From IMG/VR virus record IMGVR_UViG_3300031873_001030: a DNA stretch of 64,000 nt, one strand, 5' to 3'. Position numbers and translations under genes: made by a program. The DNA is from a virus. Taxonomy: Duplodnaviria > Heunggongvirae > Uroviricota > Caudoviricetes. The notes under the pieces were generated by a model. The model searched no databases, was not told where the DNA came from, and worked only from the letters and a program-made list of their open reading frames with translations. This document shows, in pieces, positions 2,095 through 47,100 of the stretch (its first letter is position 1; each line of letters begins with the position of its first letter).

Positions 2095-2313
2095 TATGCT
2101 GAAAGGAAGTCTTTATAGATATTTCTTTTGTAAGGAAAAGAAAGAAAAAGAATATAGGTGTCCAAAATGCGATTGTATTTTGGAGATAGAGATAAAATGT
2201 GGACCCAAGTGATATTGATGAATAAATTACACGTAGATATATTTGGTATGGATATGGATTTTGTTAAATGTAATTCTATAAAAAATTCTCAGACAAGCGC
2301 TTCTGAAGACAAC

Positions 2314-2504
2314 TTAACATATGTTAAGAATTCAGCAGTACCTGCAGCAAGCAACTCATTAACATATGTTAAGTATCTCCATCGAATCATCCTTGGCAAA
2401 CGCCAGACCCAGGAACACAAGTCTTTAACATATGTTAATGTAATCATTGGCCGCATTGCCTCAAACAAGAAAGAAAATCCCAGTCGCCCATTAACATATG
2501 TTAA
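2314..2504. repeat. four-copy TTAACATATGTTAA array (2314, 2359, 2425, 2491) with unique 31-, 52- and 52-bp spacers
   Basis: Read directly. It produces mirror-image artefact ORFs 2158..2559(+) and 2289..2564(-) with repeated LTYV(N/K). Confidence 0.95.
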
Positions 2505-2641
2505 TAAGTTGGTGCCAGCAATTGCTTGGCAACCAACAGCATACAAAGTGATATTATGAATCATATTCCTTTCATATGAAGCAGATATGTGGAAAATATT
2601 TGATACAATAATAGAAGGGAGAAAAAATGAGTTAAAAAGAG

Positions 2642-2854
2642 ATGCGAATAATGAAAATATTTAATTACAACGTGAGCATAACAATAAAGAAAGATTATCC
2701 TAATTGTAAAGCTCCTATTCAAAAGAGATATAGAGAAAAAAAGAGGATGCGTGGTTTTTGTATAAATGGTGGATGTTGGAACAAAGTTGAAAATAACCGT
2801 TCCAAATGTCCAATCTGTATGGAAAAAGATAGGAAGAGATGGAAAGTGAGATAG
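2642..2854 (+). CDS. small Cys-rich (zinc-ribbon-like) basic protein
   Basis: ORF track; CKAP...CINGGC...CPIC cysteine pairs. Confidence 0.5.
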   Translation: MRIMKIFNYNVSITIKKDYPNCKAPIQKRYREKKRMRGFCINGGCWNKVENNRSKCPICMEKDRKRWKVR

Positions 2855-2867
2855 TTAGTGATTATTT

Positions 2868-3089
2868 GTGGACATAATAATTTCAACATTGATAGCATTT
2901 GGCTCTTTGGTATTGGCGATATTTTTCATACTTATTGCGAGGTGGGACGCAAACAAAGTGATAGATAAGTTGTATAGAGAGGAATATAAAGAGAGAAATA
3001 GGATTGATGCGAATGTTGTCAAATCACTTGTAGGGAACTTGAAACAGAAAAGAGATGATGAAATATCTAGTTCGGAATATACAAAATGA
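2868..3089 (+). CDS. small membrane-anchored protein
   Basis: ORF track; N-terminal hydrophobic helix IISTLIAFGSLVLAIFFILIA. Confidence 0.5.
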   Translation: MDIIISTLIAFGSLVLAIFFILIARWDANKVIDKLYREEYKERNRIDANVVKSLVGNLKQKRDDEISSSEYTK

Positions 3090-3209
3090 TTTTTAAGTAG
3101 CAACGTGTAATTATTAGATTAGTTAGATATAGAGGAGTGAAGGAAGTAACTAAAGAATCTCGTTTCTTTGGATATTTTCTTTAAGAATAAAGTATAATGG
3201 AGGTGGCAA

Positions 3210-3296
3210 ATGTCATTCTACGAAAGATTGGAGAGGAGAGCAAAAGCACTTAATGATATAATGTGGGGTTCAGACGATGAGACTGAAAGTGAATAA
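3210..3296 (+). CDS. 28-aa hypothetical peptide
   Basis: GGAGGTG at 3199-3205 precedes ATG 3210; weak. Confidence 0.3.
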   Translation: MSFYERLERRAKALNDIMWGSDDETESE

Positions 3297-3365
3297 CTCT
3301 ACTATTAATACTTTAGCAATTAATTATACTATAGGGACTTTAGGAGTTCCTATGGTATAAAAAAT

Positions 3366-3409
3366 CTAGGGGCTTTGTTCCTAGTTAGAAAGGGATATTC
3401 TTCCTTTCT
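3366..3409 (+). promoter_or_regulatory. two adjacent short hairpins (CTAGG..CCTAG; AGAAAGG..CCTTTCT) upstream of the 3441 operon
   Basis: Inverted repeats read directly. The second resembles hairpin 7673-7699 (GAAAGGG..CCCTTTC followed by ATAAAA). Confidence 0.5.
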
Positions 3410-3440
3410 AAAAATATGGTAAAAATAAGGTGATATATAA

Positions 3441-4010
3441 ATGAAGACAATAGAAGTAGAAATAAAAGGTCCTATTTTGCTGATGCATAATCCGAAGTCT
3501 ATGCTAGACCCACAGACTACTGGAACGAAATCATCAACTGCGAAATATGACTATAATGTCGAAGCAGAGAAGTCTGCTTACAAGACGAAAAAAAATGAAT
3601 TATATATTCCTGCCCAAGCTATGTTCAGTTCCACATTGAATGGAGCTTCTTTCAAGAAAGTAGGAAAATATACTGCCAAGAGCATTATAGCTGGCAATAT
3701 GAGAATAGAGCCAGAAGAAATCCTGATTCTAGATAGCAAAGGGAAAGTCATGACAAAATATGAGATAGACTTGAGGACTGTGGTTATTGCTCAAGGTAAG
3801 AAAAGAAACCGAATAGTCAGGGCAAGAGCTATGGTAAAGGATTGGAGTGCTAGATTCAGAATAGTCTATAACGACCAATTCATAGGCGACCCTGCTATAA
3901 TAGAAGATTGCTTGAAGGATGCAGGTTCAAGGATAGGTCTGTTGGAATACAGACCACAGACAAGTGGAAGCTACGGAACATTTGAGATAGTGAAATTCAA
4001 GGTGATATAA
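3441..4010 (+). CDS. hypothetical protein, translationally coupled to the ParB-like gene
   Basis: ORF track; AAGGTGA upstream; stop abuts ATG 4011. Confidence 0.65.
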   Translation: MKTIEVEIKGPILLMHNPKSMLDPQTTGTKSSTAKYDYNVEAEKSAYKTKKNELYIPAQAMFSSTLNGASFKKVGKYTAKSIIAGNMRIEPEEILILDSKGKVMTKYEIDLRTVVIAQGKKRNRIVRARAMVKDWSARFRIVYNDQFIGDPAIIEDCLKDAGSRIGLLEYRPQTSGSYGTFEIVKFKVI

Positions 4011-4895
4011 ATGGCACTATGGGATAGGGAAGAAAGAAAGCATACGGAAAATAAAGTATTGCCACTCAAGGATATAGTATTTGATGAGAACATATATCCA
4101 AGACAAAGTTCATGGTGGCAAACTTCGTATAAATATGCCGAAGAGATGAAAGCAGGCGCAAGGTTTCCTCCAATCACAGTAGGTTTTGTGAATGGAAGAT
4201 ACGTGCTTGTGGATGGGAAGCATAGGAATGACGCACTTCTGATGAATAAGGAGACACATACATCAGTAGTAGTTCTCTATGGTTACACTTTGGATGAACT
4301 CTATATTGAAGCTGTAAAACTCAATAGGGCTCACGGTGTAGGACTTACTTCTTTCGACAAGGTCAAGATAATCAAGAGACTTGAAGATATGAAATATTCA
4401 TTGGGAGACATAGCCACGATAGTCCAGATTCCTTTGGGAAGCATAGAGAAATTTGTAGCACAGAGGATTACGTTAAATCCATTAGGACAAGTCACAGTAT
4501 TGAAATCTCCTCTCAAGTTTATGGCAGGAGGAACTATAACGATGACTGACGAAGAGCAAGATACTCTAAGTGTGAGGAGTGAGATAAGTCTGGTAAATCA
4601 GATGACACAGATATTCTCAAATCCGAAGATGCTAAGGGTTGATATAACATTCGTTGATGCTATCGAGAAGCTTTACCAACTGATTCAAGATTTCCTCAAA
4701 GAACAGAAAATTTTGAATGGAGCTGGAAATACAATAGAAGAAGTTCCAAAAGAGAAAATATACAAGAAAAGAGGAAGACCTAAGAAAATCAAGACTGAAA
4801 GTGAGACTTCAGAACCAAAGAAAAAGGGAAGACCTAAAGGTTCTAAGAACAAGCTTAAAGAACTTGATGTCAGTAACGTCAAAGAACAAGCATAA
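4011..4895 (+). CDS. ParB/Srx-fold (ParB-like nuclease domain) protein with two C-terminal AT-hooks
   Basis: N-terminal LPLKDIVFDENIYPR ... RFPPITV ... YVLVDGKHR matches the ParB N-domain pattern (DGxHR). C-terminal KKRGRPKK and KKKGRPKGSK are AT-hook cores. Confidence 0.7.
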   Translation: MALWDREERKHTENKVLPLKDIVFDENIYPRQSSWWQTSYKYAEEMKAGARFPPITVGFVNGRYVLVDGKHRNDALLMNKETHTSVVVLYGYTLDELYIEAVKLNRAHGVGLTSFDKVKIIKRLEDMKYSLGDIATIVQIPLGSIEKFVAQRITLNPLGQVTVLKSPLKFMAGGTITMTDEEQDTLSVRSEISLVNQMTQIFSNPKMLRVDITFVDAIEKLYQLIQDFLKEQKILNGAGNTIEEVPKEKIYKKRGRPKKIKTESETSEPKKKGRPKGSKNKLKELDVSNVKEQA

Positions 4896-4944
4896 ATAGT
4901 TAATCAGTTAGACTTTATTTGGAAAGAATGAAGCAGGGTTTAGT

Positions 4945-5015
4945 GACAACGAACCTCAGAGATAGAACTTACTGATTCTTAGAATCAGTTGGTTCTTACT
5001 GCGAGGTTCGTTGTC
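4945..5015 (+). repeat. 71-nt imperfect-hairpin element, copy 1 (candidate structured RNA or DNA cruciform site)
   Basis: Outer 13-bp stem GACAACGAACCTC/GAGGTTCGTTGTC, inner stems AGAAC/GTTCT and ACTGATTCT/AGAATCAGT; 50 nt after the ParB-like stop. Confidence 0.8.
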
Positions 5016-5431
5016 ATAGTTCCTTCCCTCTTCATACTTTCTTTAATATTAGGGAATTTATAAAAACTGTAGGTTTTTATTATGAGATAAGGTTCGGTTG
5101 GGTCAGTTGGGGTGGGTTCCGTTCCGATATGGTATGGTAAGATTATATTTATTGGACGTGGTAGGATAGGGTAGGATGCGATATGGTATTGTTACTTGTT
5201 CCGATATGGTTCGGTGATTTGGGGTTAGGTTAGGTCTGTTCCGATAGGGCAAGGTATGGTATTTTATTTATTCGATACGGTTCGGTTTGGTGGGTTTGGG
5301 TTAGGCAAGATAAGATAGGGTTAGACAAGGTATCTTACTTTTGTATCCGATTGGGTAAGGTCTGGTAGTATTCGGTCCGTTGTGGTTAGGCACGATATGG
5401 TGTGGTAAGGTTTGACATTTATAGTCAGTCA

Positions 5432-5491
5432 TTAACATATGATAAAGAGTTGGACCCAGTGCACGGGTGGCATTCCATTAACATATGTTAA
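5432..5491. repeat. palindrome pair (5432-5445 TTAACATATGATAA with 1 mismatch; 5478-5491 perfect) enclosing a 32-bp GC-rich insert
   Basis: Read directly; insert agagttggacccagtgcacgggtggcattcca is 19/32 G+C. Confidence 0.9.
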
Positions 5492-5525
5492 TGAGAAAAG
5501 ATAAGAAATAATGTAAAATGATAAT

Positions 5526-5798
5526 ATGAAGAAGATAAAGGAAGAATTTTGCTTTCGCAGGAATGATACTAGAACTTCATATGATATGCAGAAAGGCTAT
5601 CTGATATATGGCAAGATTGATGACATTTATAATATCATCACTTACAATCTATTTGAGATGTGGAATACTACAAAGTGTTTTAAAAGGTTTAGGAAATTGT
5701 TCGTCACTACTTCAAATCACGAATGGATACATTATCTTGTTCCAGATATAAAAGATGGAAGTCTGATGAAGAAGATTGAAAATTGGTTTAACTGGTAA
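5526..5798 (+). CDS. hypothetical protein embedded in the GGTNN tract
   Basis: ORF track; bracketed by a 42-bp perfect direct repeat that contains the palindrome. Confidence 0.45.
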   Translation: MKKIKEEFCFRRNDTRTSYDMQKGYLIYGKIDDIYNIITYNLFEMWNTTKCFKRFRKLFVTTSNHEWIHYLVPDIKDGSLMKKIENWFNW

Positions 5799-5822
5799 AA
5801 TGTATCGTTAACCAAAATTCCA

Positions 5823-5836
5823 TTAACATATGTTAA
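5823..5836. repeat. TTAACATATGTTAA palindrome (within the 42-bp direct repeat 5817-5858 = 5472-5513)
   Basis: Read directly. Confidence 0.95.
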
Positions 5837-5881
5837 TGAGAAAAGATAAGAAATAATGAAAATCAAAAAGAGGTAAAAAAA

Positions 5882-5989
5882 ATGAGATACTATTGCCGAG
5901 AACATAAGGAAAGTTTTGAGACTACTGTCTGCTTTCTTCAACATGTTCTTAAGGAACACCATAGCATATTTGACATCACAAGTGAATAG
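5882..5989 (+). CDS. 35-aa Cys/His-containing peptide
   Basis: ATG 5882 lies 45 nt after the palindrome; translation MRYYCREHKESFETTVCFLQHVLKEHHSIFDITSE; below the track cutoff. Confidence 0.3.
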   Translation: MRYYCREHKESFETTVCFLQHVLKEHHSIFDITSE

Positions 5990-6151
5990 ATATTTATGTG
6001 ATGAGGTGGGGTCAAGTCAGGTCGGTTCTGGTTGCGATACTGACCTTATCACACCAAACCTCACCTTACCAGGGTTCGATAAGTTGTGATTTGGTAGGAT
6101 AGGGTAAAGTTATTTATATTTGAAACACGTAATTATATGTCAAGGAAGTCT

Positions 6152-6223
6152 GACAACAAACCTCAGAGTTGGAACTTTCTGGTTCTAAAAAATCACTTAG
6201 TTCTTTCTGCGAGGTTTGTTGTC
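6152..6223 (+). repeat. imperfect-hairpin element, copy 2
   Basis: Outer stem GACAACAAACCTC/GAGGTTTGTTGTC. Confidence 0.8.
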
Positions 6224-6949
6224 TTTGTATCGACTTTATCATTCGGTCAGGTAAGGCGGGTTCAGGTGGGGTATAGTTTCGGTTCGGTATGGTAGTTTGA
6301 CATTTATACGATACGGTAAGGTGAGGTTTGGAAGATAGTCTTTATGATTCGGTAAGGTGGGGTCAGTTGCGATTGTGTGAGGTTTGATTTGGTTTGGTCT
6401 GATTTGGTAGTTTGAGGCAAGGTAAAGTTAATTCCTTTTATATGATAAGGTATGGTCTAATTCGGTCTGGTTTGGTTGGATGGGCTACGTTCCGATAAGG
6501 TTCGGTATGGTAATATGACACTTATACGATTAGGTTCGGTCAGGTAAGGTTGGGTCAAATGCGATTAGGTAAGATGAGGTTCGGTCAGATACGGCAAGAT
6601 ATGGTATAATATTTATTCGGTTAGGTGAGGTCAGTTTAGGTCTGGTCTGATGTAGTTTGGCATGGTAGTATAACACTTATCGGTTTGGTTCGGTATGATG
6701 CGATATGGTCAGATTCGGTTTGATATGGTAGTATGACACTTATTGGTCAGGTTTAGTAGAATATGGTAAGGTTCGGTTCGATACGGTGGGATATGGTCAG
6801 TTAGGATTTGGAAAAGGAGAGAATAGTTTCAAGAAAGAATCAGCCCTTGGGTGAGTCCCTTGAAATGAAAAATGCCGCACCAGAGATGGTGATATTAGGT
6901 AAACTAATATAAATCAAGGTTCGAACCGTCCGTTAGGCAACGGTTCTCT

Positions 6950-7020
6950 GACAACAAACCTCAGAGTTAGAACTTACTGGTTCTTGAAATCAGTTGGTTC
7001 TTTCTGCGAGGTTTGTTGTC
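6950..7020 (+). repeat. imperfect-hairpin element, copy 3
   Basis: Outer stem GACAACAAACCTC/GAGGTTTGTTGTC; preceded by hairpin GAACCGT..ACGGTTC (6923-6946). Confidence 0.8.
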
Positions 7021-7201
7021 TTCCTCCAAAAAATTACTTATTCGATAGGGTAAGGATAGGTATGCTATGTCAGGGTCAGGTTTGGTTAGGTTTGATATGG
7101 TATGGTAAGGTAATTTAATACTTTTGCTTTGGTGCAATATGGTAATATTCGGTAGGGTATAATTCGGTGGGTTCCGTTAAGGTATGGTAAGGATTATATT
7201 T

Positions 7202-7321
7202 ATGAAATACGTATATAGGAATAGAGATGATGAAAGGGAACTTAAATTTGAAGTTCCAGATAGTATGTCAATAGCTGAAGCATTTGAATTTGCAGAAAGG
7301 AAATGCGCCAGCATGGAGTGA
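7202..7321 (+). CDS. 39-aa hypothetical peptide inside the GGTNN tract
   Basis: Only non-repetitive, protein-like composition in this part of the tract (MKYVYRNRDDERELKFEVPDSMSIAEAFEFAERKCASME); weak. Confidence 0.3.
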   Translation: MKYVYRNRDDERELKFEVPDSMSIAEAFEFAERKCASME

Positions 7322-7672
7322 TTATAATTTTTGGTCTGGTAGGGTGCGATTAGGTACGATTGGGTTTGGTCAGATAGGATATGATATGGACTATTGTAAT
7401 TTTCGGTTAGGTGCGGTTAGGTCTGGTTTGGTGCGTTCGAGGTGTGGTCAGATAGGATATGGAACTTTCATTCGTACTTTTCGGTAGGGCATTATTCGGT
7501 CCGATATGGTCTGGTCAATTCCGCTCTGGTTCGGTTAGATAGTGTATGGTGATATATGTTAAGTCGTGGTTTGGTTCGGTCTGGTAGAATGAGGTTTATC
7601 TTTTTTGATAGGCTATCGTTCGGTCTGGTGAGGTATGGTTCGGTAGGGTTCGGCAAGGTTTAATCCTTTTAG

Positions 7673-7787
7673 GAAAGGGTCTTTGATTCATTCCCTTTCT
7701 ATAAAAGATTTATCCCACGTCTTCGGGATTTATCCCTTCTTTCAGAAGGGATTTATATATCACCGAATCTCGTTTTAAACGAGATTC
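7673..7787 (+). promoter_or_regulatory. cluster of four hairpins (7673-7699; 7707-7758 double ATCCC/GGGAT unit; 7765-7787 GAATCTCGTTT/AAACGAGATTC)
   Basis: Inverted repeats read directly. The GATTTATCCC-N6-8-GGGATTTAT unit recurs at 25703 and 43483. Confidence 0.6.
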
Positions 7788-7963
7788 ACAAAGAACTTGT
7801 GGTCGGGTCTGATACGGCAAGGTGTGATACGGTAAGATAAGATTGGGTTATGGTCTGGCAAGGAACTTTTTACTTATATGGTTTGGCACGGTCCATTCCG
7901 TTGCGTTTAGGTGTGGTAAGGCTTGGTATGGTTACGATTTATTTGGCGTAACATATGTAATAC

Positions 7964-8632
7964 GTGTATTTAAGGTTTCTTATGTATAGTTATGCTATGG
8001 CAAAAGATGAGAATAGGGAAATAAACGTCAGTGGAAAGACAATTGCCTTAATCCTTATGGTAATCATTACAATATTTTCAGTAGGCAGTCTGATAGTAGC
8101 CATAAATGATAAAGGTCAAGCTTCCTCAGATTCAACTAGCTGGCAGAACAAATATACAACTTGCAGTTCTGGATTAAGCTCTTGCAACTCTCAACTAAGC
8201 TCTTCTCAATCAAGCTCCTCTTCATGCGCTTCACAACTCAATACTTGCAATAGCAACCTTGATTATTATCAGAACACAGGAGGAACTTGCAGTTCAGATT
8301 TGAGCAATTGCAATGCCAATTATAATACCTGCAATGCCAATCTTAACAATTATAAGACACTTTATTCTAATTGCGGTGGCAGTCTGACTAACTATCAGAC
8401 ACTTTATTCTAACTGCCAGTCAAGCTATTCTACTTGTAATTCTAATTTCAATACTCTGACTTCCACTTACAATTCTCTGAAGTCAAATTCTGATGTCATG
8501 GCACAGAATTATGCCAGTATGAAATGCTGTCCAAGCTGGCCATCCACCAAATACAGCTATTACTATACAAGCAATGGAAATGTCTATTGCACTGATACAG
8601 CAACAGCAAGCACAAAACTTACAGGATGCTAA
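7964..8632 (+). CDS. membrane-anchored Ser/Asn/Cys-rich low-complexity protein
   Basis: ORF track; TM helix TIALILMVIITIFSVGSLIVAI followed by recurring C-N-S/A-N-(L/Y/F) motifs; start may be ATG 7982. Confidence 0.6.
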   Translation: MYLRFLMYSYAMAKDENREINVSGKTIALILMVIITIFSVGSLIVAINDKGQASSDSTSWQNKYTTCSSGLSSCNSQLSSSQSSSSSCASQLNTCNSNLDYYQNTGGTCSSDLSNCNANYNTCNANLNNYKTLYSNCGGSLTNYQTLYSNCQSSYSTCNSNFNTLTSTYNSLKSNSDVMAQNYASMKCCPSWPSTKYSYYYTSNGNVYCTDTATASTKLTGC

Positions 8633-8635
8633 ATC

Positions 8636-8761
8636 ATGAGAAAATATACATCCGACAAATGGTTGAAACCTGGTGAAAAATATATCAGCACTGCAGAGAA
8701 AGAACCTGTTCCTAAAAAGAAATATGGTCATGTAGAAATTCCAGATATAGAAGACGATTGA
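8636..8761 (+). CDS. 41-aa hypothetical peptide
   Basis: ATG 4 nt after the previous stop; below the track cutoff. Confidence 0.35.
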   Translation: MRKYTSDKWLKPGEKYISTAEKEPVPKKKYGHVEIPDIEDD

Positions 8762-11186: not shown

Positions 11187-12039
11187 AGTCACATTTGCAG
11201 TCTGCGCATACAATGAGGAAAAGATTATCGCAGAATGTCTGAGACACATAAAGAACGTCGATTATCCTAACAAGGAGATAATAGTCGGAAGCGATGGGAC
11301 TGACAGGACAACTGAGATAGCACAAAATATTGGTGGTGTGGAAGTCATATCATCTGGAGAGAGGCTTGGAAAGACTCAGATGCTGATGAAGATAATAGAG
11401 CAAGCCAAAGGAGATATAATAATCATAAATGATGCTGAATTTTTCCTATTTCCAAATGACGCTGTCTACAAGATTGTAGAAAGTTTTGAGAACGAAAGGA
11501 TAGGAGGATTGTCATTTGGCTCTTCAGCTCCTCATGAGATTGACTTCACAAATTGGTGGGGACTCGTGGAACACGTGATACAGGACATATTCAGATATCA
11601 TAGGATGAAAAAGAACCCACTCACGTCATTGAAAGATGCTAATTTTATCATCGTAGCAAATGCTTTCAGAAAGGATATCATAACAAAGCTTGAGACGATA
11701 AATGATGATGCTGAGATAGGATATCAATTACTGTCTAAAAATCATTATCTGCTATATGTCCCTTCAGTCAGTTTCTATACACCTGGAGGTTCTGCAAAGA
11801 ACATAAAGGATAATATAAACCAGAGGTCAAGGACTGCAGTAGGATGGATACAGATAGGAAAGTTGTATAAGATAAACTTCTTGAGATTCTATATAATCTC
11901 TTTCTGGATGATTGTCAAACTGATATTCAGCCTGATAATCTGGACTGGAGTATTCATATTCAGCTACCTGAAAGGAAGATTCCTCTACATCATAGGCAGA
12001 AGGTCTTCAAAGCAAGTATGGACAAAGGTAAGAAGATGA
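11167..12039 (+). CDS. family-2 glycosyltransferase with C-terminal membrane helices
   Basis: VTFAVCAYNEEKII...YPNKEIIVGSDGTDRT and IIINDAEF (DxD-like) match the GT2 pattern. Confidence 0.8.
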   Translation: MINVLPKVTFAVCAYNEEKIIAECLRHIKNVDYPNKEIIVGSDGTDRTTEIAQNIGGVEVISSGERLGKTQMLMKIIEQAKGDIIIINDAEFFLFPNDAVYKIVESFENERIGGLSFGSSAPHEIDFTNWWGLVEHVIQDIFRYHRMKKNPLTSLKDANFIIVANAFRKDIITKLETINDDAEIGYQLLSKNHYLLYVPSVSFYTPGGSAKNIKDNINQRSRTAVGWIQIGKLYKINFLRFYIISFWMIVKLIFSLIIWTGVFIFSYLKGRFLYIIGRRSSKQVWTKVRR

Positions 12040-12374
12040 GAAAAAAATTCAATTATGAAAACTATTACAAGAAATATTATGAAAGTCATAAGGATAAGCA
12101 CTTGTATTATGTCAATGAATGGAAGAAGAAGCATAAAGATAGTGTAAGAATTTATTCCAAACGTTATTCCAAAAGTTGGAGATTGAGAAACAAAGAAAGA
12201 TTGAAGAAAACTTCAAAAAGATATTATGACAGGCATATCAGAAGTTCTTGGTTCGATAGGATATTTGGTTTCAAATGCAAAGTATGCGGCAAGAGATATA
12301 AAGATAAAAAGGCTTTGGGTGGGCATACCACATATTGTAAAAGAAAAAGGATTGAACTTATTAACATATGTTAA
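12018..12374 (+). CDS. basic Tyr/Lys-rich protein with C-terminal CxxC...HxxxC zinc finger
   Basis: ORF track; stop codon inside palindrome 12361-12374. Confidence 0.5.
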   Translation: MDKGKKMRKKFNYENYYKKYYESHKDKHLYYVNEWKKKHKDSVRIYSKRYSKSWRLRNKERLKKTSKRYYDRHIRSSWFDRIFGFKCKVCGKRYKDKKALGGHTTYCKRKRIELINIC

Positions 12375-17742: not shown

Positions 17743-18933
17743 ATGACGTTGAAGAATCTTGTAACGCCATTGGAACTTAAGACTCTCTGGGATTCTGAAT
17801 ATTACAAATCAATATTGACAGCTACAGCTAGCAGCTGCCAATTTGGAAGGATAAGAGAACACCAACGTAATAATACATTCAAAGAAATCAGAGCCAATCT
17901 GAATGCTCTGATAGTTGGAGAATATGGAATTGGGAAATCCACAATGTTGGACATTAAGAATGTCCCAATAGTCAGGGCTAATACAGTTTCAGTTGCTGGA
18001 CTAGCTGGAACTACGACAAGAAGTGGGGAACACGTTATTGGAGCTGCATATAAAGCTAATAATAAATTACTAATTATAGATGACGTTGGTAGTGGTGAAA
18101 ATTCTTATATAGATAATTCTGTAAAACGATGCATGAATCTGCTATTGGAACCTCCGCATACTTTTTCACGAATGTTAGGATTTAAGATGAACATTCCTGT
18201 GAAAGAGAAGAAGGGTGGAGCTTGGGTGAAAGGAAGTGAGAATCAGTTTACATTGCGTTCTAAGTTCAGTTGCATCGTAGCTACAACATCAGTTGTAATT
18301 CGAAATACTGATGACAAAGCTTGGATGTCAAGATTCGTACCAGTAAAACTACATGGTAGTGTGGATTACATGTTTGAATTTTTATCTGGTTCTAATCCAT
18401 TTACAATTACTGGTTTGAATCGGAAAGTCAAGTTATTTGAATTTCCAGATTATCTGGAATTCTTGGAATTCTATGAAGAACATTTTCGTGGAAGTCTGTG
18501 GGAGAAAAGCATAATAGAAAAGGAAGATGAAGTCGGTTCTATAGCGAGAAATACTGGTGACTTGGTAAGATTGGCTGCTTTCAATTGCGCTGTCGATGAT
18601 AGAATAAATATAGAATTTGAAGATGCCAAGAAAGTTTTTGATAGGTTCTACAATCAGATATGGTTCAATATCCAAGTTGGACCACTGACTCATGAACAAT
18701 ATAGAGTTCTATTACTTCTCAATAAGAAGTTGACTGAAGATGAGATAGCAGAAACTATACAAAGGTCACAGCCTTACGTATCTAAGATGATAGAGAAATT
18801 TGAAAGTAAGGGAATACTTGTAGACAGAAAAGTTGCGAAAGAAGTTGAAAACTTTAAACAAACTTCATGGGAAAAACTCGAACCACAGCAGACTTTATCA
18901 GAATCTGTAAAGTTAGATGGTAGTCATGAGTGA
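17743..18933 (+). CDS. MCM-like AAA+ ATPase with C-terminal winged helix-turn-helix
   Basis: Walker A VGEYGIGKST, Walker B LLIIDDVG, sensor-1-like CIVATTS, Arg-finger-like MSRF (MCM SRFD), and C-terminal LTEDEIAETIQRSQPYVSKMIEKFESKGIL. Confidence 0.65.
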   Translation: MTLKNLVTPLELKTLWDSEYYKSILTATASSCQFGRIREHQRNNTFKEIRANLNALIVGEYGIGKSTMLDIKNVPIVRANTVSVAGLAGTTTRSGEHVIGAAYKANNKLLIIDDVGSGENSYIDNSVKRCMNLLLEPPHTFSRMLGFKMNIPVKEKKGGAWVKGSENQFTLRSKFSCIVATTSVVIRNTDDKAWMSRFVPVKLHGSVDYMFEFLSGSNPFTITGLNRKVKLFEFPDYLEFLEFYEEHFRGSLWEKSIIEKEDEVGSIARNTGDLVRLAAFNCAVDDRINIEFEDAKKVFDRFYNQIWFNIQVGPLTHEQYRVLLLLNKKLTEDEIAETIQRSQPYVSKMIEKFESKGILVDRKVAKEVENFKQTSWEKLEPQQTLSESVKLDGSHE

Positions 18934-21728: not shown

Positions 21729-22961
21729 TTGGAGATGAAAGTGATGAACATAGGTGAAGTTGAAATTGGAAAACCTTGGCAATATAAGGAAAATTCTATT
21801 GGAATTGTTGTTCCACTTTTAAGGAAGAATCAAGTCAAAAGAAATTATAAGACAGTTGAGGAAGTTAAGGAGATGATGAATATCAAGGATACTGGAAATA
21901 TAGACAGTGTTGAAATTTCCTCAAAAGTCAATGAACCAGTTTTTATCAGGAGCGGGACGATGTTTGAAGGGGTTGGAACTCAGAGCAGGACGCCAACAAC
22001 TAGCATTGTCATAATTCCAAATCAACAGCCTATGAAAGTTCCTGTAAAATGCATACATGCTTCTCATCACATATCTTCTGGAAGCAACTTTAAAGTCGCA
22101 GGTAGTATTCCCCACTATATTGGTTATGCAGCTTTTGGACCAAGGGCTAGTCAATCTCGTGTGTGGTCTTCTGTAAGCATGCAAGCAAGTTCTGTAAGCC
22201 ATCATGCTATGCATCTTTCTGACAATCTTATCGATAACGTAAGAAAAATAGAAACTTTTAAGAAAGATATTGGCGAAGCAGTTAAAAACTATCCGATATT
22301 GAAAAATCAAGTTGGTATAGTTGTTCTTGATTTTAACGGGGTTGTTGGTCTTGAGATGTTTGATAATTCTGAATCTTGGGCAGCAGTATGTAAAGACATA
22401 ATCAATAAGTATTCTGACACAATAACACAGCTTGTTGACAGTCCTTTATTTTCATTGAATGAAGAAAGCATAAAACCAAAGATATTGGAATTCTTGAAGA
22501 AGCTGACAGAAGCAAAAGAAGAGATTATCTTTCAAGCAGATGTGATGAAAACAATCTTATTGGAAAATGGAGATATCATTGGAGAATGTACGAGTATTGA
22601 TGGCAGGATGATACATCTCATGGGAATGAAAAAGAAGGATGAGGAAAGGACATATGGTTCAGTTGCTCCAAATAATTTACCATTTACACCACAAAATTGG
22701 ACAACCAGAGGTTCTAACTATTCTGTGCTATCTGCACTTGGAGATGGAAGTAGGAGATTTTCAGAAATAGAGAAAACAACTAAATTATCCCCAGCTACAG
22801 TAAGCAAAAATTTAAGCAAGTTCCATTCTCTTGGATTTATTGACAAGTCAGCAGAAATAATAAACAACAAGGCCCGTGAAGTTTATAGCCTTACAAGCAA
22901 CGGTAAAAATGCATTTTTTACTATGCATGATGTCAGGAAGAAATTGATGAAGCTTGGATAA
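21729..22961 (+). CDS. uncharacterised N-domain fused to a C-terminal wHTH (ArsR/TrmB-like)
   Basis: C-terminal YSVLSALGDGSRRFSEIEKTTKLSPATVSKNLSKFHSLGFI. Confidence 0.6.
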   Translation: MEMKVMNIGEVEIGKPWQYKENSIGIVVPLLRKNQVKRNYKTVEEVKEMMNIKDTGNIDSVEISSKVNEPVFIRSGTMFEGVGTQSRTPTTSIVIIPNQQPMKVPVKCIHASHHISSGSNFKVAGSIPHYIGYAAFGPRASQSRVWSSVSMQASSVSHHAMHLSDNLIDNVRKIETFKKDIGEAVKNYPILKNQVGIVVLDFNGVVGLEMFDNSESWAAVCKDIINKYSDTITQLVDSPLFSLNEESIKPKILEFLKKLTEAKEEIIFQADVMKTILLENGDIIGECTSIDGRMIHLMGMKKKDEERTYGSVAPNNLPFTPQNWTTRGSNYSVLSALGDGSRRFSEIEKTTKLSPATVSKNLSKFHSLGFIDKSAEIINNKAREVYSLTSNGKNAFFTMHDVRKKLMKLG

Positions 22962-24415: not shown

Positions 24416-24479
24416 TTAACATATGTTAATCAGTGATGCAGCATAATGCAAAATTCCTTCAGTCTTTAACATATGTTAA
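24416..24479. repeat. palindrome pair (24416-24429, 24466-24479) enclosing a 36-bp insert
   Basis: Read directly; lies between the tRNA fragment and tRNA-Tyr. Confidence 0.95.
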
Positions 24480-24527
24480 TGTCAAATTAGAAATGCAATA
24501 CGATTGTTAACAAGAAAGTTAACAAAG

Positions 24528-24598
24528 TCTCACCTGCCAGAATTGCACCAGCATCTACGAGGCTACAGCTCGTTGTTCTACTGTTGAACTAAGGCGAG
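24528..24598 (-). tRNA. tRNA-Tyr (GTA)
   Basis: Hand fold CTCGCCT-TA-GTTC-AACAGTA-GAAC-A-ACGAG-CTGTAGC-CTCGT-AGAT-GCTGG-TGCAATT-CTGGC-AGGTGAG-A; C1-G72 as in archaeal/eukaryal tRNA-Tyr. Confidence 0.75.
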
Positions 24599-24601
24599 TT
24601 G

Positions 24602-24674
24602 TGGGGATGCTGAGATTTGAACTCAGATTATTCGCTTCCAGAGCGAAGGTTCTAACAAGTTATACTACATCCCC
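24602..24674 (-). tRNA. tRNA-Pro (TGG)
   Basis: Acceptor GGGGATG/CATCCCC, anticodon arm TTCGC-TCTGGAA-GCGAA, T arm CTGAG-TTCAAAT-CTCAG. Confidence 0.85.
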
Positions 24675-24677
24675 AAG

Positions 24678-24751
24678 GGAGAATAGAGGGATTTGAACCC
24701 TCTCTAACAAGTTCACAGCTTGACGTGCTCGCCTACTACACCATATTCTCC
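24678..24751 (-). tRNA. tRNA-His (GTG) with genomically encoded G-1
   Basis: G-GAGAATA...TATTCTC-C, D stem GTGT/GCAC, anticodon loop CTGTGAA, T arm GAGGG-TTCAAAT-CCCTC. Confidence 0.8.
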
Positions 24752-25212
24752 ATTTTATTATGTTCTTCTCTATGGCAATTTGCACATAGAAGTTTGCATT
24801 TCTGCAATTCTTTTCGTATCACCTCGAGACTATTATGCCATATTCTGGATATTTCATATTTCTTTTCTCCGTTCATATGATGAAATTCAAGTGCTGCGAA
24901 ACATTTGTTATATCCACATTTTTGACATTTACCTCCAAATTCCATTTTCATAATTTTTGTTTTTTCTTGGTTTTTACGCTTTTGTGCTATATACCACAAA
25001 TGTCTCTGAGGGAGAGATGATTTTTGTTTATGTTGTTTTATATATTTTCTCATATATTCTCTATGATATTTTTTCCTTTTTTCTCTGTTTTCAGGGTTTG
25101 ACAACCAAATTTTCCATCGTTCTTTTTCTTGCTCACGGTGTGATTTTCTATATAATCTATTTATTTCACACAATCGTTCTTTGTTTTTTTCATAATATTT
25201 TTTACTGGTCAT
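24736..25212 (-). CDS. HNH endonuclease with N-terminal basic Tyr/Lys-rich region, inserted in the tRNA cluster
   Basis: CQKCGY...LEFHH...N...CANCHREEH; its 3' end overlaps tRNA-His by 16 nt. Confidence 0.8.
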   Translation of the reverse strand: MTSKKYYEKNKERLCEINRLYRKSHREQEKERWKIWLSNPENREKRKKYHREYMRKYIKQHKQKSSLPQRHLWYIAQKRKNQEKTKIMKMEFGGKCQKCGYNKCFAALEFHHMNGEKKYEISRIWHNSLEVIRKELQKCKLLCANCHREEHNKMENMV

Positions 25213-25255
25213 ATAATGTAATTGTTTAATACCATTTATATTTGTTGTTGAACTA

Positions 25256-25330
25256 CGCTCTGGGCAAGACTCGAACTTGCAATTTCTCCGTTAACAGCGG
25301 AGCGCTTGTACCTGTTTAAGCTGCCAGAGC
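25256..25330 (-). tRNA. tRNA-Asn (GTT)
   Basis: GCTCTGG-CA-GCTT-AAACAGGTAC-AAGC-G-CTCCG-CTGTTAA-CGGAG-AAATT-GCAAG-TTCGAGT-CTTGC-CCAGAGC-G. Confidence 0.85.
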
Positions 25331-25333
25331 AAG

Positions 25334-25437
25334 TACTCCCCGAATGATTCGAACATTCGTCTCTTGGTTTCTCCAAGTTTCAGATTCTTGTTGAAATTAT
25401 CAAAGCCAAGCATCTTTGTCCACTGGACGAGGGGAGT
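25334..25437 (-). tRNA. tRNA-Gln (TTG) with a ~31-nt intron after position 37
   Basis: Acceptor ACTCCCC/GGGGAGT (A1-U72); anticodon stem CTTGG/CCAAG enclosing CTTTGA-[intron]-A; T arm GAATG-TTCGAAT-CATTC. Confidence 0.65.
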
Positions 25438-25466
25438 ATATTGATTGTAGTTCTTTTTAAAAACTA

Positions 25467-25538
25467 TGGACACAAGCGGGAATCGAACTCGCATCTCTTT
25501 CTTGCAAGGGAAGTATCCTACCATTAAACGATTGGCCC
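25467..25538 (-). ncRNA. degenerate tRNA-like element (Ala TGC-like anticodon loop CTTGCAA) with mismatches in the acceptor, anticodon and T stems
   Basis: GGGCCAA...TTGTGTCCA pairs at only 5 of 7 acceptor positions (2 mismatches). Anticodon stem CTTCC/GAAAG and T stem GCGAG/CCCGC each carry an A-C mismatch. Confidence 0.35.
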
Positions 25539-43919: not shown

Positions 43920-44162
43920 TGTGAGTTGAAGAAAACATGTCACATGGGGAAAAAAGACAGAGAAGGAAAAAAACTAAGAAGCAAAGGCAAAGAAAAAGGA
44001 TGAAAGAGAGGAGAGACAAAGGGAGGTAATCTATGAATGAGATTGACATCCATGAAATGAATTATTTCATCGACATGGTGTCACCAGCTTATCAAGATGA
44101 GTTGTGAAAAAAATGAGATGCGAAAACAATAGGGGTAATTGCCCAATTTGGAGGGTTTTGTA

Positions 44163-47100
44163 ATGGCAAATAGTATTTTTGGTCAGCCTCAGCCAAATCC
44201 ATTTTCACCAGGCACGACATTGCCGTCATCAAATGTAAGTGTGACGCCAAGTATGCCCATTGGTGGATTGACTGTAGGATTAGGAGGAAGTGGAAATGTT
44301 TATTATGGAGGAGCGCCTGCTGGAGGAGTTGGTCAGACTACAACAACAACTGGAGGTCCTGCGATTTATATTCCTCCACAGGAGACTGCAAAAGCAGCAG
44401 AAAAAACAATAACTCCTGCTTTGATTCCTGAAATAAAACCGCCAACTTTAAAAGTTGGTGTCGGCGGATTGGTAGAAGGTTTGGGAAAATCTGGTAATGT
44501 ATATGAAGGTGGTGTGCTTGTTGGAGGTACTACTCCATGGGGTCCTGTAGTTAAGGAAGGTGGTGTCAGTTATGTCCCAACTGGAAGGACAGCTGAAACT
44601 GGAGAGACAATTTATTCTGGAACTCAGATAAGTTCTGCAACACCTATTGGAACTTTTGTGCCTGCAAAGAGAATTGAAATAACTCCACTGATGCCAGAGA
44701 TTAGTGTACAACCAGCTACAGCTGGTGCTATAGGTCTTTCATTTCCTGCAGGTGTTTTGTCTGTAAAATCTGGTCCAGTTGATGTGAGCAAACTTTCTCC
44801 AGATGTGCAGACTGCGTTGGGAAATCTTCAAGGAAAGGTGCAGGCTGAATATCCAGGATTCAAGCTTGCAAGTTGGACTCGTGAAGGTGATGAGCTGAAA
44901 GGTGTTTTGGAACCTGTGAAGTATGTCTCACTTGGAACTGATGTTACGAAAGCGACTGCTGCCATAAAGGATTTGGGATTGAAAGAAGGTGATTATAAAT
45001 TATATACTGGAATTGGTGGGGATTATCAGCTTGTGACTGATAAGGTGTCAAGCCAGAAATACGTGAGTGGTCTTCTTTCCAGTTATTCAGTTATTCCTAT
45101 AACTGGGTATGGACAGTATAGAGGGTCTGATGAGAGGATTGCATTGAAGTTTCTTGATAAGGAAGGTTATATCAAAGATGGTGTGATAAGCAAAGATGTT
45201 CAAGTGATAGGGGATATAGGAGTAGGAGGAACTGGTGCGATGATAGTTTTAAAGGGAAGTACAAAGAGTTCTGAAGATTTGTCAAAGACTTATTTTTCTT
45301 CCTTGACTGAAGTGCAGAAGGAAGATACTGCGATGGCAAGAGGAGAGTTGCAGATTGCTCAGGAAAAGGAACTTTTGAGACAACCTGGTATGAGTGTTGA
45401 AAAGGGAGCTGCTTGGTGGAATTTGAATGTTGGTCCTTATATGCTTTCTCCAAAGGACCCTCTTGGTCTGAGGAGTGCTTACATAGGAGTTGAAGGTTTG
45501 GTAAAAGGAACTCCTGTCAGTGTCATACAAAAGGACATAGAAGCTAGCAGGCTTTCTGCAGAACAGGAATTTCTTCAGAGAAAATATATGGGAGAGTCTT
45601 GGACTAAATCATTATGGGAAGCTCCTGCAACGCAGCCTTTGAAAGTTGCTGCTACTTGGTATGGCGGTGGTCTTTTGTTGGGAGGTGCTGCTGGAGTTCT
45701 TAAAACTGCTGAAGTAGGTGCTGGTATAGTATCAAAAGCTCCATGGCTTGCAACTACAGGAAGAGTTATTTCAACTGCTGGAAAAGTTGCGACAAGTGTT
45801 CCAGGACAAGTTGTAATTGGTTCAGGATTGTATGGTTTTACTGAAAGAGGAAATATAATGGCACTTGCAAAAGGAGGTGTTCCAAGAGACATTGTTCCTG
45901 GAATGATTTTTGACGCATCACAATTTGGATTTGCATATGGCGGTGCAGCTGCAGGTTTTCCAGTTGGTTATTCTAGAGGTGCTGGATTGGGTTATGCTTT
46001 CAAGCCTGGTGCATTGCCTCCATCTGAAACATTCGTGGCAGAAATCAGAGGGACTGGAGTATCTGGAATTCCAGGTGAATTGCAAGGATTGAAACTTGGG
46101 ACAAGGGTTGCTGGAGAAGTTCCAAAGGGTTTTGTTCCAAAAGGATTTAGTGAAGGTGTTCCTTATAGGGCGTTCTTGCAGGAGGGTGTGACAGTTACAA
46201 GAGCTGGAGAAGTTGTACCTTCTGGGACTTTGATGCCAACTATTGCAGAAATGGAACCTGCAAAACCTTTGATGCAGAGGATTGCCACTGCAATGACAAA
46301 GCCAAGCGAATTGATTCCTAAGATGCTTCCTGGAGGACCTACTGTTGAAGCTCCTTTTCTTGAATCAATCAGATATGGTGAAGAAAAGATAGCGAAAGGA
46401 GGAACTAAGGATATTTATGCTGCAGGTTATCAGCCAGGAACTACAATATGGTCAAGATTGAAGATGCCTGTTGAAGGAGCGCAGTATGGGATTGCTGAAG
46501 GTTTTAAGACTGTTACAGCTGAGAGTCCTCTTGCTTCGTTGACAGAAAAATACACTACAAGGATGGCATTGAGAGCTACTGGCGCTCCTATTGAAGCGGG
46601 AGATGTTGTTCCAGTGAAAATAATGGCAAAGACAGATTTTATTGTAAATGATGAAGGGATAGCTGCGATGTTGAAATCTGGAAAGAATCTTGCAGATATT
46701 GAAAAATTGAAAGGTGCTGATATAATACAGCGTGATATTGAATTTGCAGATAAGCCTGCTGTAAGGTACACTAGATTTATTGATAAGGAAACTGGAAAAT
46801 CTTTGGTTGTGTTGAAGCAGACTGCAGCTCCTACAATAGAGGAAGTTGTTGCTTTGGCAGAGGAAGGAAAGACTTTGATAAAACCTGAATATGTTGGAGG
46901 AAAGGTTGCAGGCTATAGTATAAGAGGTACTGAAATAGTTGGAGAGGGGAAAGAATTTGCAGGAGGAGTGCGTTATAAAAAGGGTGTTGAAGTAGTTGGT
47001 AAGGAACAAGTGACAGGAATAGCTCTTGATGATAAGACATTTAACGCATTGATGGATAAATATGGAAACAAGATATTGAGGGTTTCATCTCCGACAACTG

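Follow-up and report, generated by a model that had tools for sequence, protein, structure and literature searches.

The VIPR (Viral Interference Programmable Repeat) system was described in two bioRxiv preprints (10.64898/2026.04.26.720920 and 10.64898/2026.04.26.720927). It combines the RAMP protein Vipr, an accessory DNA-interacting gene (vap), and vrRNAs, which typically contain 9–16 YNNGG repeats (at least four) with variable NN positions and a conserved 3′ tail; the carriers are mostly phages and archaeal viruses, competing elements are silenced, and the published array types are tandem, staggered, hammerhead-interspersed, and single-guide (10.64898/2026.04.26.720920). A second family of relevance is the promoter-early stem-loop (PeSL) cassettes of T4-like phages (Arbiol et al. 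2010, PMC2839356; Comeau et al. 2014, PMC4122927), in which repeats made of a promoter and a stem-loop occupy stop-to-start gaps upstream of ORFans and recombination makes indels and mini-circles. Here, we analyzed a stretch of 64,000 nucleotides (hereafter the window) from the IMG/VR virus record IMGVR_UViG_3300031873_001030, assigned to the Caudoviricetes, in which a direct repeat of 42 bp, with its copies termed R1 and R2, lies inside what its sequence features identify as a VIPR guide-RNA array. We favor, with a probability of roughly 0.6, the explanation that a portable cis-regulatory module, present as R1 and R2, was recently duplicated in front of two small genes.

The exact 42-mer, ATTCCATTAACATATGTTAATGAGAAAAGATAAGAAATAATG, occurs twice in the window, at 5472–5513 and 5817–5858, as an earlier sequence-only reading of this DNA had reported, whereas no copy is expected by chance (0 in 100 dinucleotide shuffles). 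The window contains no further copies with three or fewer mismatches. The identity extends to 46 nt on the plus strand (R1, 5472–5517; R2, 5817–5862) with a single mismatch, T5514 versus A5859, and beyond these limits the flanks of the two copies are unrelated on both sides, giving the repeat abrupt edges. Each copy contains a perfect palindrome of 18 bp, CATTAACATATGTTAATG, at 5476–5493 in R1 and 5821–5838 in R2. Around the palindrome core, only two segments are private to the pair: ATTCCA (6 nt) on the left and the purine-rich GAGAAAAGATAAGAAATAATG[T/A]AAA (24–28 nt) on the right, in which the 42-mer of R1 ends with ATG (5511–5513). The copies are spaced by 345 bp from start to start and flank one sizeable open reading frame (ORF) of 90 residues, ORF90 (5526–5798). 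Start codons follow the copies after 12 nt (5526) and 23 nt (5882), so that the geometry given by the earlier reading was accurate. R2 begins 18 nt past the stop codon of ORF90, and its 46-nt form ends 19 nt short of the start of a second small frame, ORF35. As RNA, the palindrome is predicted to fold into a hairpin of −7.5 kcal/mol (z = −3.85). It is AT-rich and no U-run follows it, which makes a terminator function doubtful.

The palindrome is not confined to this pair and belongs to a dispersed family. Its 14-bp core, TTAACATATGTTAA, occurs at 14 exact sites and two near sites with 1–2 mismatches, compared with about 0.1 expected by chance, and all 16 are confined to positions 700–24479, within the first 25 kb of the window. 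The exact cores start at 700 (700–713), 988, 1575, 1613, 2314, 2359, 2425, 2491, 5478, 5823, 12361, 12398, 24416, and 24466, and the near cores at 5432 and 16605. Sites are frequently paired at distances of 37–66 bp. R1 conforms to this habit because a degenerate third palindrome, pal′ (5430–5447, plus strand; core 5432–5445 with one mismatch), precedes its palindrome by 46 bp and makes a typical two-site pair with it. Where the surrounding genes are clear (sites 700, 988, 1613, 5478, 5823, and 12398), the palindrome lies 4–34 nt past a stop codon and 25–45 nt ahead of a start codon, and the starts downstream of palindromes often have a Shine-Dalgarno-like sequence. A literature search for the palindrome string returned no mention of it.

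We located close relatives of the locus through the Vipr protein and a ParB-like protein encoded next to it. The contig L008, which is 8.3 kb long and about 77% identical in nucleotide sequence over genes, contains four palindromes, and its array encloses every one of them. One of them belongs to an orthologous extended unit, TTAACATATGTTAATGGAAAAAGATAAGGAATAATG (7659–7694), which is identical to the window unit at 33 of 36 positions, compared with about 77% over the neighboring genes; minus-strand ORFs in L008 point toward this unit. The L024 lineage (about 75% identity; contigs L054–L059) contains a palindromic direct repeat of its own, GAAATGTTAACATATGTTAAAGAGAAAAT[A/G]TTATGATTCGCTTCGATTC, of 50 nt with one mismatch, and the AAAGAG downstream of pal′ in the window is the same as in this unit. 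Its two copies are 125 bp apart and bracket a single vrRNA unit instead of a gene, with another vrRNA unit after the second copy. L056 and L057 are assembled like L024, L054 breaks inside the unit, and the repeat is present in contigs listed under two different sample records. Four palindrome sites were counted in L024 and L056. The private extension of the R unit is thus conserved in L008 and partly conserved in L024 and L054, indicating that it is under constraint and is not filler. More distantly, L020, in which one protein is 47% identical to its counterpart in the window, has five exact and two near palindromes, several of which are 22–50 nt upstream of a Shine-Dalgarno sequence with ATG. 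Four other relatives (L009, L011, L049, and L052) keep vipr and the ParB-like gene, but neither this palindrome nor any other enriched palindrome was found in the 7–20 kb around the gene; a search of L009 and L011 for a replacement palindrome or regulon motif recovered only Shine-Dalgarno-type repeats. GGY/NN tracts are visible in L049 and L052, and one run in L009.

The relatives also revealed how variable this part of the array is. Two vrRNA units serve as landmarks. Unit A (5341–5422, plus strand), whose tail ...TTTGACATTTAT ends immediately before the segment with the repeat, is kept in L008 (6826–6889) and L024 (2257–2308), and unit B is found at 6233–6307 (plus strand) in the window. The interval from A to B is only 8 bp in L008, where the two units adjoin, and consists of one 50-nt palindromic module in L024, whereas it spans about 820 bp in the window and holds the small-gene island, one more guide unit, and a hairpin element. 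Different small ORFans occur inside the array of each relative. Copies of the module are near-identical within a genome and divergent between genomes (the units of the window and L024, for example, differ by a 7-nt indel and have unrelated tails), a sign of recent duplication or conversion acting locally in each lineage. The sequence-only reading had proposed that relatives retaining both copies at the same spacing would speak for an old, fixed duplication. Instead, copy number and intervening content differ among them. Such differences make the region plastic and leave recombination between the R copies plausible. We rejected the terminal ATG of the R unit as a conserved start codon, as it reads ATG-TAA in R1, opens a six-codon ORF in R2, and opens unrelated short ORFs in L008 and L024.

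The island covers 5423–5994 in the order pal′ (5432), R1, ORF90, R2, and ORF35, which ends at 5989. It follows directly on the tail of unit A, and the next GGY/NN unit begins at about 5990, indicating insertion at a guide-unit boundary. ORF90 (5526–5798, plus strand) encodes 90 amino acids with a conserved HExxH motif (NHEWIHYLVP) and is the sole gene bracketed by the repeat. Its codon-usage score of 0.18 is the best of the six frames and within the range of the known genes of the window. While a word-indexed search of 5.8e9 proteins returned no match besides ORF90 itself, two remote homologs emerged from a full HMMER search against 1.84 billion representatives, namely P0050 (44% identity, E = 5e-6) and P0051 (38% identity, E = 7e-4). 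The HExxH motif is common to all three (NHEWIHYL, NHEFIHHL, and IHEFVHHL), and a GSL..IE.WF motif is likewise conserved. ORF90 and the two homologs may constitute a tiny family of zinc-metallopeptidase-like proteins, judging from these motifs. The homologs are encoded at 106–417 in L060 and 506–844 in L061, contigs of about 30% GC in which the palindrome, 42-mer-like sequences, and a GGY/NN tract are all absent. The expectation of finding ORF90 homologs elsewhere between copies of the same 42-mer therefore failed, and the occurrence of the homologs in other contexts indicates that the module belongs to the virus rather than to the gene. ORF35 (5882–5989, plus strand), downstream of R2, would encode a zinc-finger-like mini-protein of 35 residues (YYCREH...HVLKEHH) with the Shine-Dalgarno-like AAGAGGT ahead of it; no homolog was found in the fetched loci. 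In L061, a small C2H2 zinc-finger ORF precedes the ORF90 homolog, and in the window the zinc-finger-like ORF35 follows ORF90. Exact look-ups of ORF90, ORF35, and the ORF at 7964–8632 in an assembly index gave no record.

The motif family, its placement between stop and start codons, its conservation and differing arrangement in relatives, the hairpin-forming palindrome, and the gene homologs without the module all speak for a regulatory module. In the mechanism that we propose, the palindrome would act as an operator and/or a TATA-like core-promoter element, followed by about 25 nt of purine-rich sequence leading to the transcription start, and the same palindrome would serve this virus lineage at 16 or more sites. 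R1 would drive ORF90 and R2 would drive ORF35, two consecutive small genes in an island inside the vrRNA array. The perfect identity of R1 and R2 might stem from a recent local duplication, recombination, or gene conversion, by which a captured ORFan was placed under the same control as its neighbor. As a by-product, the copies would provide 42–46 nt of homology, enough for a recombination event that could delete or excise ORF90. If the palindrome is TATA-like, a start located about 26–27 nt from its center would coincide with the last bases of the 42-mer, and the repeat would span about −39 to +3. The site at 7020 in L008 lies about 25–29 nt upstream of a vrRNA 5′ end (TTCGGT). The sequence-only reading had offered the duplication of a promoter unit as its second option, which comes close to what the evidence supports; the promoter or operator role, the binding protein, and the recombination route are elements that we infer from sequence. 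Viral candidates for the binding protein are the ParB-like protein (4011–4895), winged helix-turn-helix proteins (17743–18933 and 21729–22961), and a C2H2 protein (12018–12374), and a host factor may act in their place.

Several observations weigh against this explanation. Not every palindrome site looks like a promoter: no gene lies downstream of the pair at 24416/24466, where a convergent tRNA cluster has its 3′ end, and none that is clear follows the four sites within 2314–2504. A consistent sigma-70 −35/−10 pair was found at the palindrome sites neither by a computed scan nor by eye. In L024, the palindrome and the terminal ATG are 7 nt closer together than in the window. ORF35 is a putative gene and, with 35 residues, too short for confirmation. 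The earlier reading had also proposed looking for relatives with a single repeat copy, but a clean empty site (one R followed by ORF35) was present in no relative, which leaves the direction of the event unestablished. Promoter or operator activity of the module is itself predicted, and the archaeal TATA interpretation hinges on the host assignment, which is only probable. Separately, we rejected a sigma-70 promoter reading of the sites, as matches were no commoner than in shuffles and no consistent −10 element lies past the palindromes.

The alternative put forward first by the sequence-only reading was the insertion of a 345-bp unit, ORF90 with one repeat, by a site-specific recombinase acting at the palindrome and duplicating an att core. 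A sharp-edged direct repeat around a single ORFan is what such an event would leave, the palindrome could be a recombinase binding site, and the region does vary between relatives. Nevertheless, we consider this quite improbable. No integrase, recombinase, or transposase domain was detected with Pfam and NCBIfam in about 46 ORFs of the window, a non-exhaustive scan that covered small ORFs only in part and the window portion of the 92-kb contig. The motif is dispersed over 16 sites, also occurs in relatives, and lies upstream of starts and just after stops, whereas attC sites follow their cassettes; the perfect 18-bp palindrome has no attC-like imperfect R/L boxes, and the ORF90 homologs do without such a site. 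Transposition fares no better because 42–46 nt exceeds a transposition target duplication and no terminal inverted repeats delimit the 345-bp unit. An assembly artefact from mis-joined reads is the least probable of all, to the point of being nearly negligible. False joins at repeats do arise in metagenome assemblies, and both L001 and L054 are contigs that end within repeats of this kind. However, 42 nt is shorter than typical reads and can be spanned, and the analogous repeat of the L024 lineage was assembled identically in L056 and L057. The Logan contig L001 (run SRR9651338), placed on window positions 2114–5501 by coordinate offset rather than by base-by-base comparison, terminates exactly 30 nt inside R1, which is where a genuine two-context repeat with its left edge at 5472 would break a k = 31 assembly graph.

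We regard two further explanations as unlikely, although clearly less so than insertion by a recombinase. The palindromes might be parS- or OB-like sites of the adjacent ParB/KorB-like protein, forming a nucleation cluster on which the protein would load or from which it would spread, thereby silencing or organizing the region; R1 and R2 would be just two of its sites. The protein has a ParB N-domain and a helix-turn-helix (HTH) fold with KorB, Noc, and ParB as its best structural matches; the sites are 14–18 bp palindromes like parS, NBS, and OB, and 11 of the 16 are located within 3.3 kb of the gene. KorB is a repressor of many promoters and acts at operators situated about 40 bp ahead of them. 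However, the homologs P0005 and P0008 (59% and 52% identical) keep a very similar predicted recognition helix in the absence of the palindrome, the 5.7 kb upstream of vipr in L008 have no site at all, no ParA partner was seen, and the motif DGKHR replaces the GERR of CTP-clamp ParBs. Neither the conserved extension of 24–28 nt nor the perfect identity of the two copies would be explained. Alternatively, the module might be integral to the VIPR array as a vrRNA promoter or a processing or boundary signal, with the ORFs downstream of it in the window being incidental. Both L024 copies stand directly ahead of vrRNA units, A and B respectively, and in L008 all four sites are in the array, site 7020 being ahead of a vrRNA. 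On the other hand, most vrRNA units of the window have no preceding palindrome, eleven of its sites are outside the array beside protein genes, the motif is entirely missing from more distant relatives that have arrays of this type, and ORF90 has real homologs and gene-like codon usage.

The genes upstream of the repeat define its setting. The gene vipr (3441–4010, plus strand; phrog_4652) encodes a 189-residue RAMP-fold Vipr protein, which matches the profile of the "SUSP1 Vipr protein" in the Protein Data Bank (PDB; 36pp) over its full length with E = 1.1e-16. Its predicted model has a pLDDT of 86, and the best Foldseek matches are Cmr4, Csm3, and Cas7. It is directly followed, at 4011–4895 (plus strand; phrog_1033), by the gene of the ParB/KorB/Noc-like DNA-binding protein, in the position of the VIPR accessory gene. 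The profile of this protein aligns with Helicobacter pylori ParB (4umk) including the HTH, and Foldseek placed its model closest to KorB (8qa9), Noc, and ParB. It ends in an AT-hook tail, and the AT-hook-like GRP repeats at the C-terminus were seen in the window protein only. By its position, this gene is a candidate vap accessory gene. The array follows at 5085–7942 (plus strand), with guide units of 7–14 NNGGY repeats, commonly about ten, and tails such as A[AG]TATGACACTTAT; the units at 6462–6525, 6617–6680, and 6681–6743, for example, each contain ten NNGGY pentamers and the tail. The succession of guide units is broken by the R1-ORF90-R2-ORF35 island, by hairpin elements, and by further small ORFs. 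Distant vipr homologs (31–35% identity, GC 50–65%) are likewise followed by a GGY/NN tract in 8 of 11 IMG/VR contigs, with positions read in four. With a Vipr RAMP homolog, vrRNA-type units with a tail, and an adjacent DNA-binding gene, the region 3441–7960 is, by its sequence features, a VIPR locus with a guide-RNA array of about 3 kb. The "non-coding GGTNN tract" of the sequence-only reading, inside which the repeat does lie, thus turns out to be this guide-RNA array and contains embedded small ORFs.

Twenty-nine guides from the window, L008, L056, L049, L052, and L009 were matched to the window and eight related loci under the published 1-nt-skip rule, and all best scores against the repeat, the palindromes, and the relatives were within the range of shuffled guides. 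In some guide units, the NN code is kept across relatives: TCCCGTTAACAT was found in the window, L008 (with one mismatch), and L049, and CTTTTGGGACCCAATC in the window and L049. These units are located at 5372–5416 and 6462–6511 in the window, 6825–6889 in L008, and 11460–11524 and 12966–13005 in L049. The conserved codes suggest conserved targets, though the window and the eight related loci contained none for these guides.

Other features of the array deserve description in their own right. At 6036–6075, a short stretch of the array is inverted, with the pentamers reading ACC on this strand, and it forms long-range inverted repeats with neighboring units, such as 6054–6070 with 6315–6331 (17 nt, 100% complementary). 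A 140-nt island without pentamers at 6806–6945 contains a small hairpin (gaaccgtccgttaggcaacggttc), and another non-pentamer island at 7184–7321 contains an ORF of 45 residues (MVRIIFMKYVYRNRDDERELKF...) with no homolog in the fetched loci. A near-perfect hairpin element of about 73 nt is present in three copies that are 79–94% alike (4944–5016, 6152–6223, and 6950–7020), one of which is predicted to fold at −38 kcal/mol (z = −6.4). Downstream of the ParB-like gene, a terminator-like hairpin holds the first copy in its loop, and the L008 ortholog of this hairpin (6600–6650) has no copy of the element. A 17-nt seed of the element had no match in 48 loci. It looks like a miniature mobile hairpin element.

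Some palindrome sites distant from the island have peculiarities of their own. The exact palindromes at 2314–2504 are spaced by 45, 66, and 66 bp with unrelated intervening spacers, and this spacing suggests phased binding sites. They are spanned by an ORF at 2158–2559 that is unlikely to be a gene, in which each site translates as LTYV(K/N). Five tRNA genes (Tyr, Pro, His, Asn, and one identified by Rfam only) form a minus-strand cluster at 24527–25538, and the pair at 24416–24479 is located 48–98 nt past its 3′ end, at a convergent junction, where a simple promoter role does not fit.

A blastn search with 3400–8700 of the window against a phage nucleotide database had no match, the ParB-based locus search in viral contigs retrieved no relatives, and zero matches came both from viral contigs scanned with an exact pattern covering part of the unit and from metagenome contigs scanned with a degenerate unit pattern. 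Scanning for paired palindromes gave zero matches in viral contigs, six in genomes, all unrelated, and 14 in metagenomes, among which only L024 and, more distantly, L020 are relatives. The metagenome matches L015, L017, L021, L022, and L025 were rejected as relatives because they are unrelated tandem repeats or iterons. The single 18-mer had eight isolated matches among viral contigs; these contigs showed no similarity to the window in their proteins, and we dismissed the matches as probably due to chance. In unrelated Pacearchaeota and Patescibacteria (candidate phyla radiation, CPR) genomes, the 14-bp palindrome is paired at 2412–2483 in L003, 1829–1884 in L006, and 1095–1150 in L002. The pairs in L003 and L006, the two genome matches that were examined, are upstream of toxin-antitoxin-like operons (winged HTH-nucleotidyltransferase/HEPN and HTH antitoxin/Doc), probably a case of convergence on a simple AT-rich palindrome.

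An archaeal virus is the probable identity of the element, judging from its predicted gene content, namely a Hef/XPF-type ERCC4-HhH nuclease, a Cas4-like nuclease, winged HTH domains, which resemble those of Sta1, Lrs14, and MsvR, and C2H2 zinc fingers. The relative L049 has a weak Hjc match. The window also contains two giant ORFs, at 49389–60647 (3752 residues, with four stretches of DUF285, a BspA-like repeat) and 44139–48161 (1340 residues), and is rich in glycosyl- and methyltransferases.

Taken by itself, the repeat is ordinary, being a duplicated regulatory module in a variable region of a virus. Its setting is of more interest. Following up the repeat revealed that the GGTNN tract is an array of VIPR, a system first described in 2026, and that this example belongs to a probable archaeal virus and has a ParB/KorB-like accessory protein. 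The array has an architecture that was not reported for VIPR, with guide units interleaved with small protein genes and a palindromic module, the number and position of which vary between close relatives. A speculative extension, which we hold to be rather unlikely at present, is that the modules, combining a regulated promoter with homology for recombination, turn single guide units and payload genes into cassettes open to excision, insertion, and exchange. Two copies bracket a single vrRNA in L024 and ORF90 in the window. If true, cassette shuffling would offer a simple recombination route to gain, lose, and shuffle guides in VIPR, an RNA-guided system without known acquisition machinery. 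Modules that drive both expression and unit exchange would provide a testable idea for how VIPR arrays are regulated and diversified.

Among known systems, the PeSL cassettes offer a close parallel to the R1/R2 module. In both cases, a short repeated motif that joins a stem-loop to a promoter region, a predicted one in the module, sits between a stop codon and the next Shine-Dalgarno sequence and start codon, mostly upstream of ORFans in a hyperplastic region, bounds indels between close relatives, and can bracket a single ORFan with two nearby copies. The differences are also substantial. The module of the window has no sigma-70 consensus, and its host is probably archaeal. Its stem-loop is an AT-rich perfect palindrome, whereas that of PeSLs is a G/C-rich terminator, and it is set in a guide-RNA array instead of an early-gene region. 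Promoter and terminator activities and mini-circles have been shown for PeSLs, whereas the promoter of the module described here is a predicted one. The R1/R2 module is accordingly PeSL-like and is not a member of the PeSL family, given the missing sigma-70 consensus and an activity that is predicted.

Like published VIPR systems, the locus is virus-borne and joins a Vipr RAMP protein to a neighboring gene for a DNA-binding accessory protein and to arrays of 9–16 YNNGG repeats that end in a conserved tail. It departs from them in its protein-coding islands, palindromic repeated modules, and ParB-like accessory protein with an AT-hook tail, none of which is mentioned in 10.64898/2026.04.26.720920, nor is its probable archaeal viral host, and the 42-mer itself is not a vrRNA. 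The combination of a ParB-fold HTH protein with multiple nearby palindromes of 13–16 bp, some of them promoter-proximal, recalls KorB-OB of plasmid RK2, ParB-parS, and Noc-NBS, although site and protein do not co-vary across the relatives and neither a ParA nor a KorA partner was seen. Integron cassettes resemble the island in that a single small promoter-adjacent ORF is delimited by palindrome-containing repeats. However, an attC site is an imperfect inverted repeat of 57–141 bp downstream of a promoterless ORF, whereas the repeat of the window lies upstream and is likely a promoter, and no IntI-type recombinase was found in the ORFs scanned. Transposon target-site duplications measure 2–15 bp and accompany terminal inverted repeats and a transposase, neither of which was found around this repeat of 42–46 nt. 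Phage morons are extra genes with their own promoter between conserved genes. The island resembles them as a lineage-specific gene with a promoter-like sequence between conserved units, but here the promoter-like sequence copies a motif of the resident regulon instead of having been imported with the gene.

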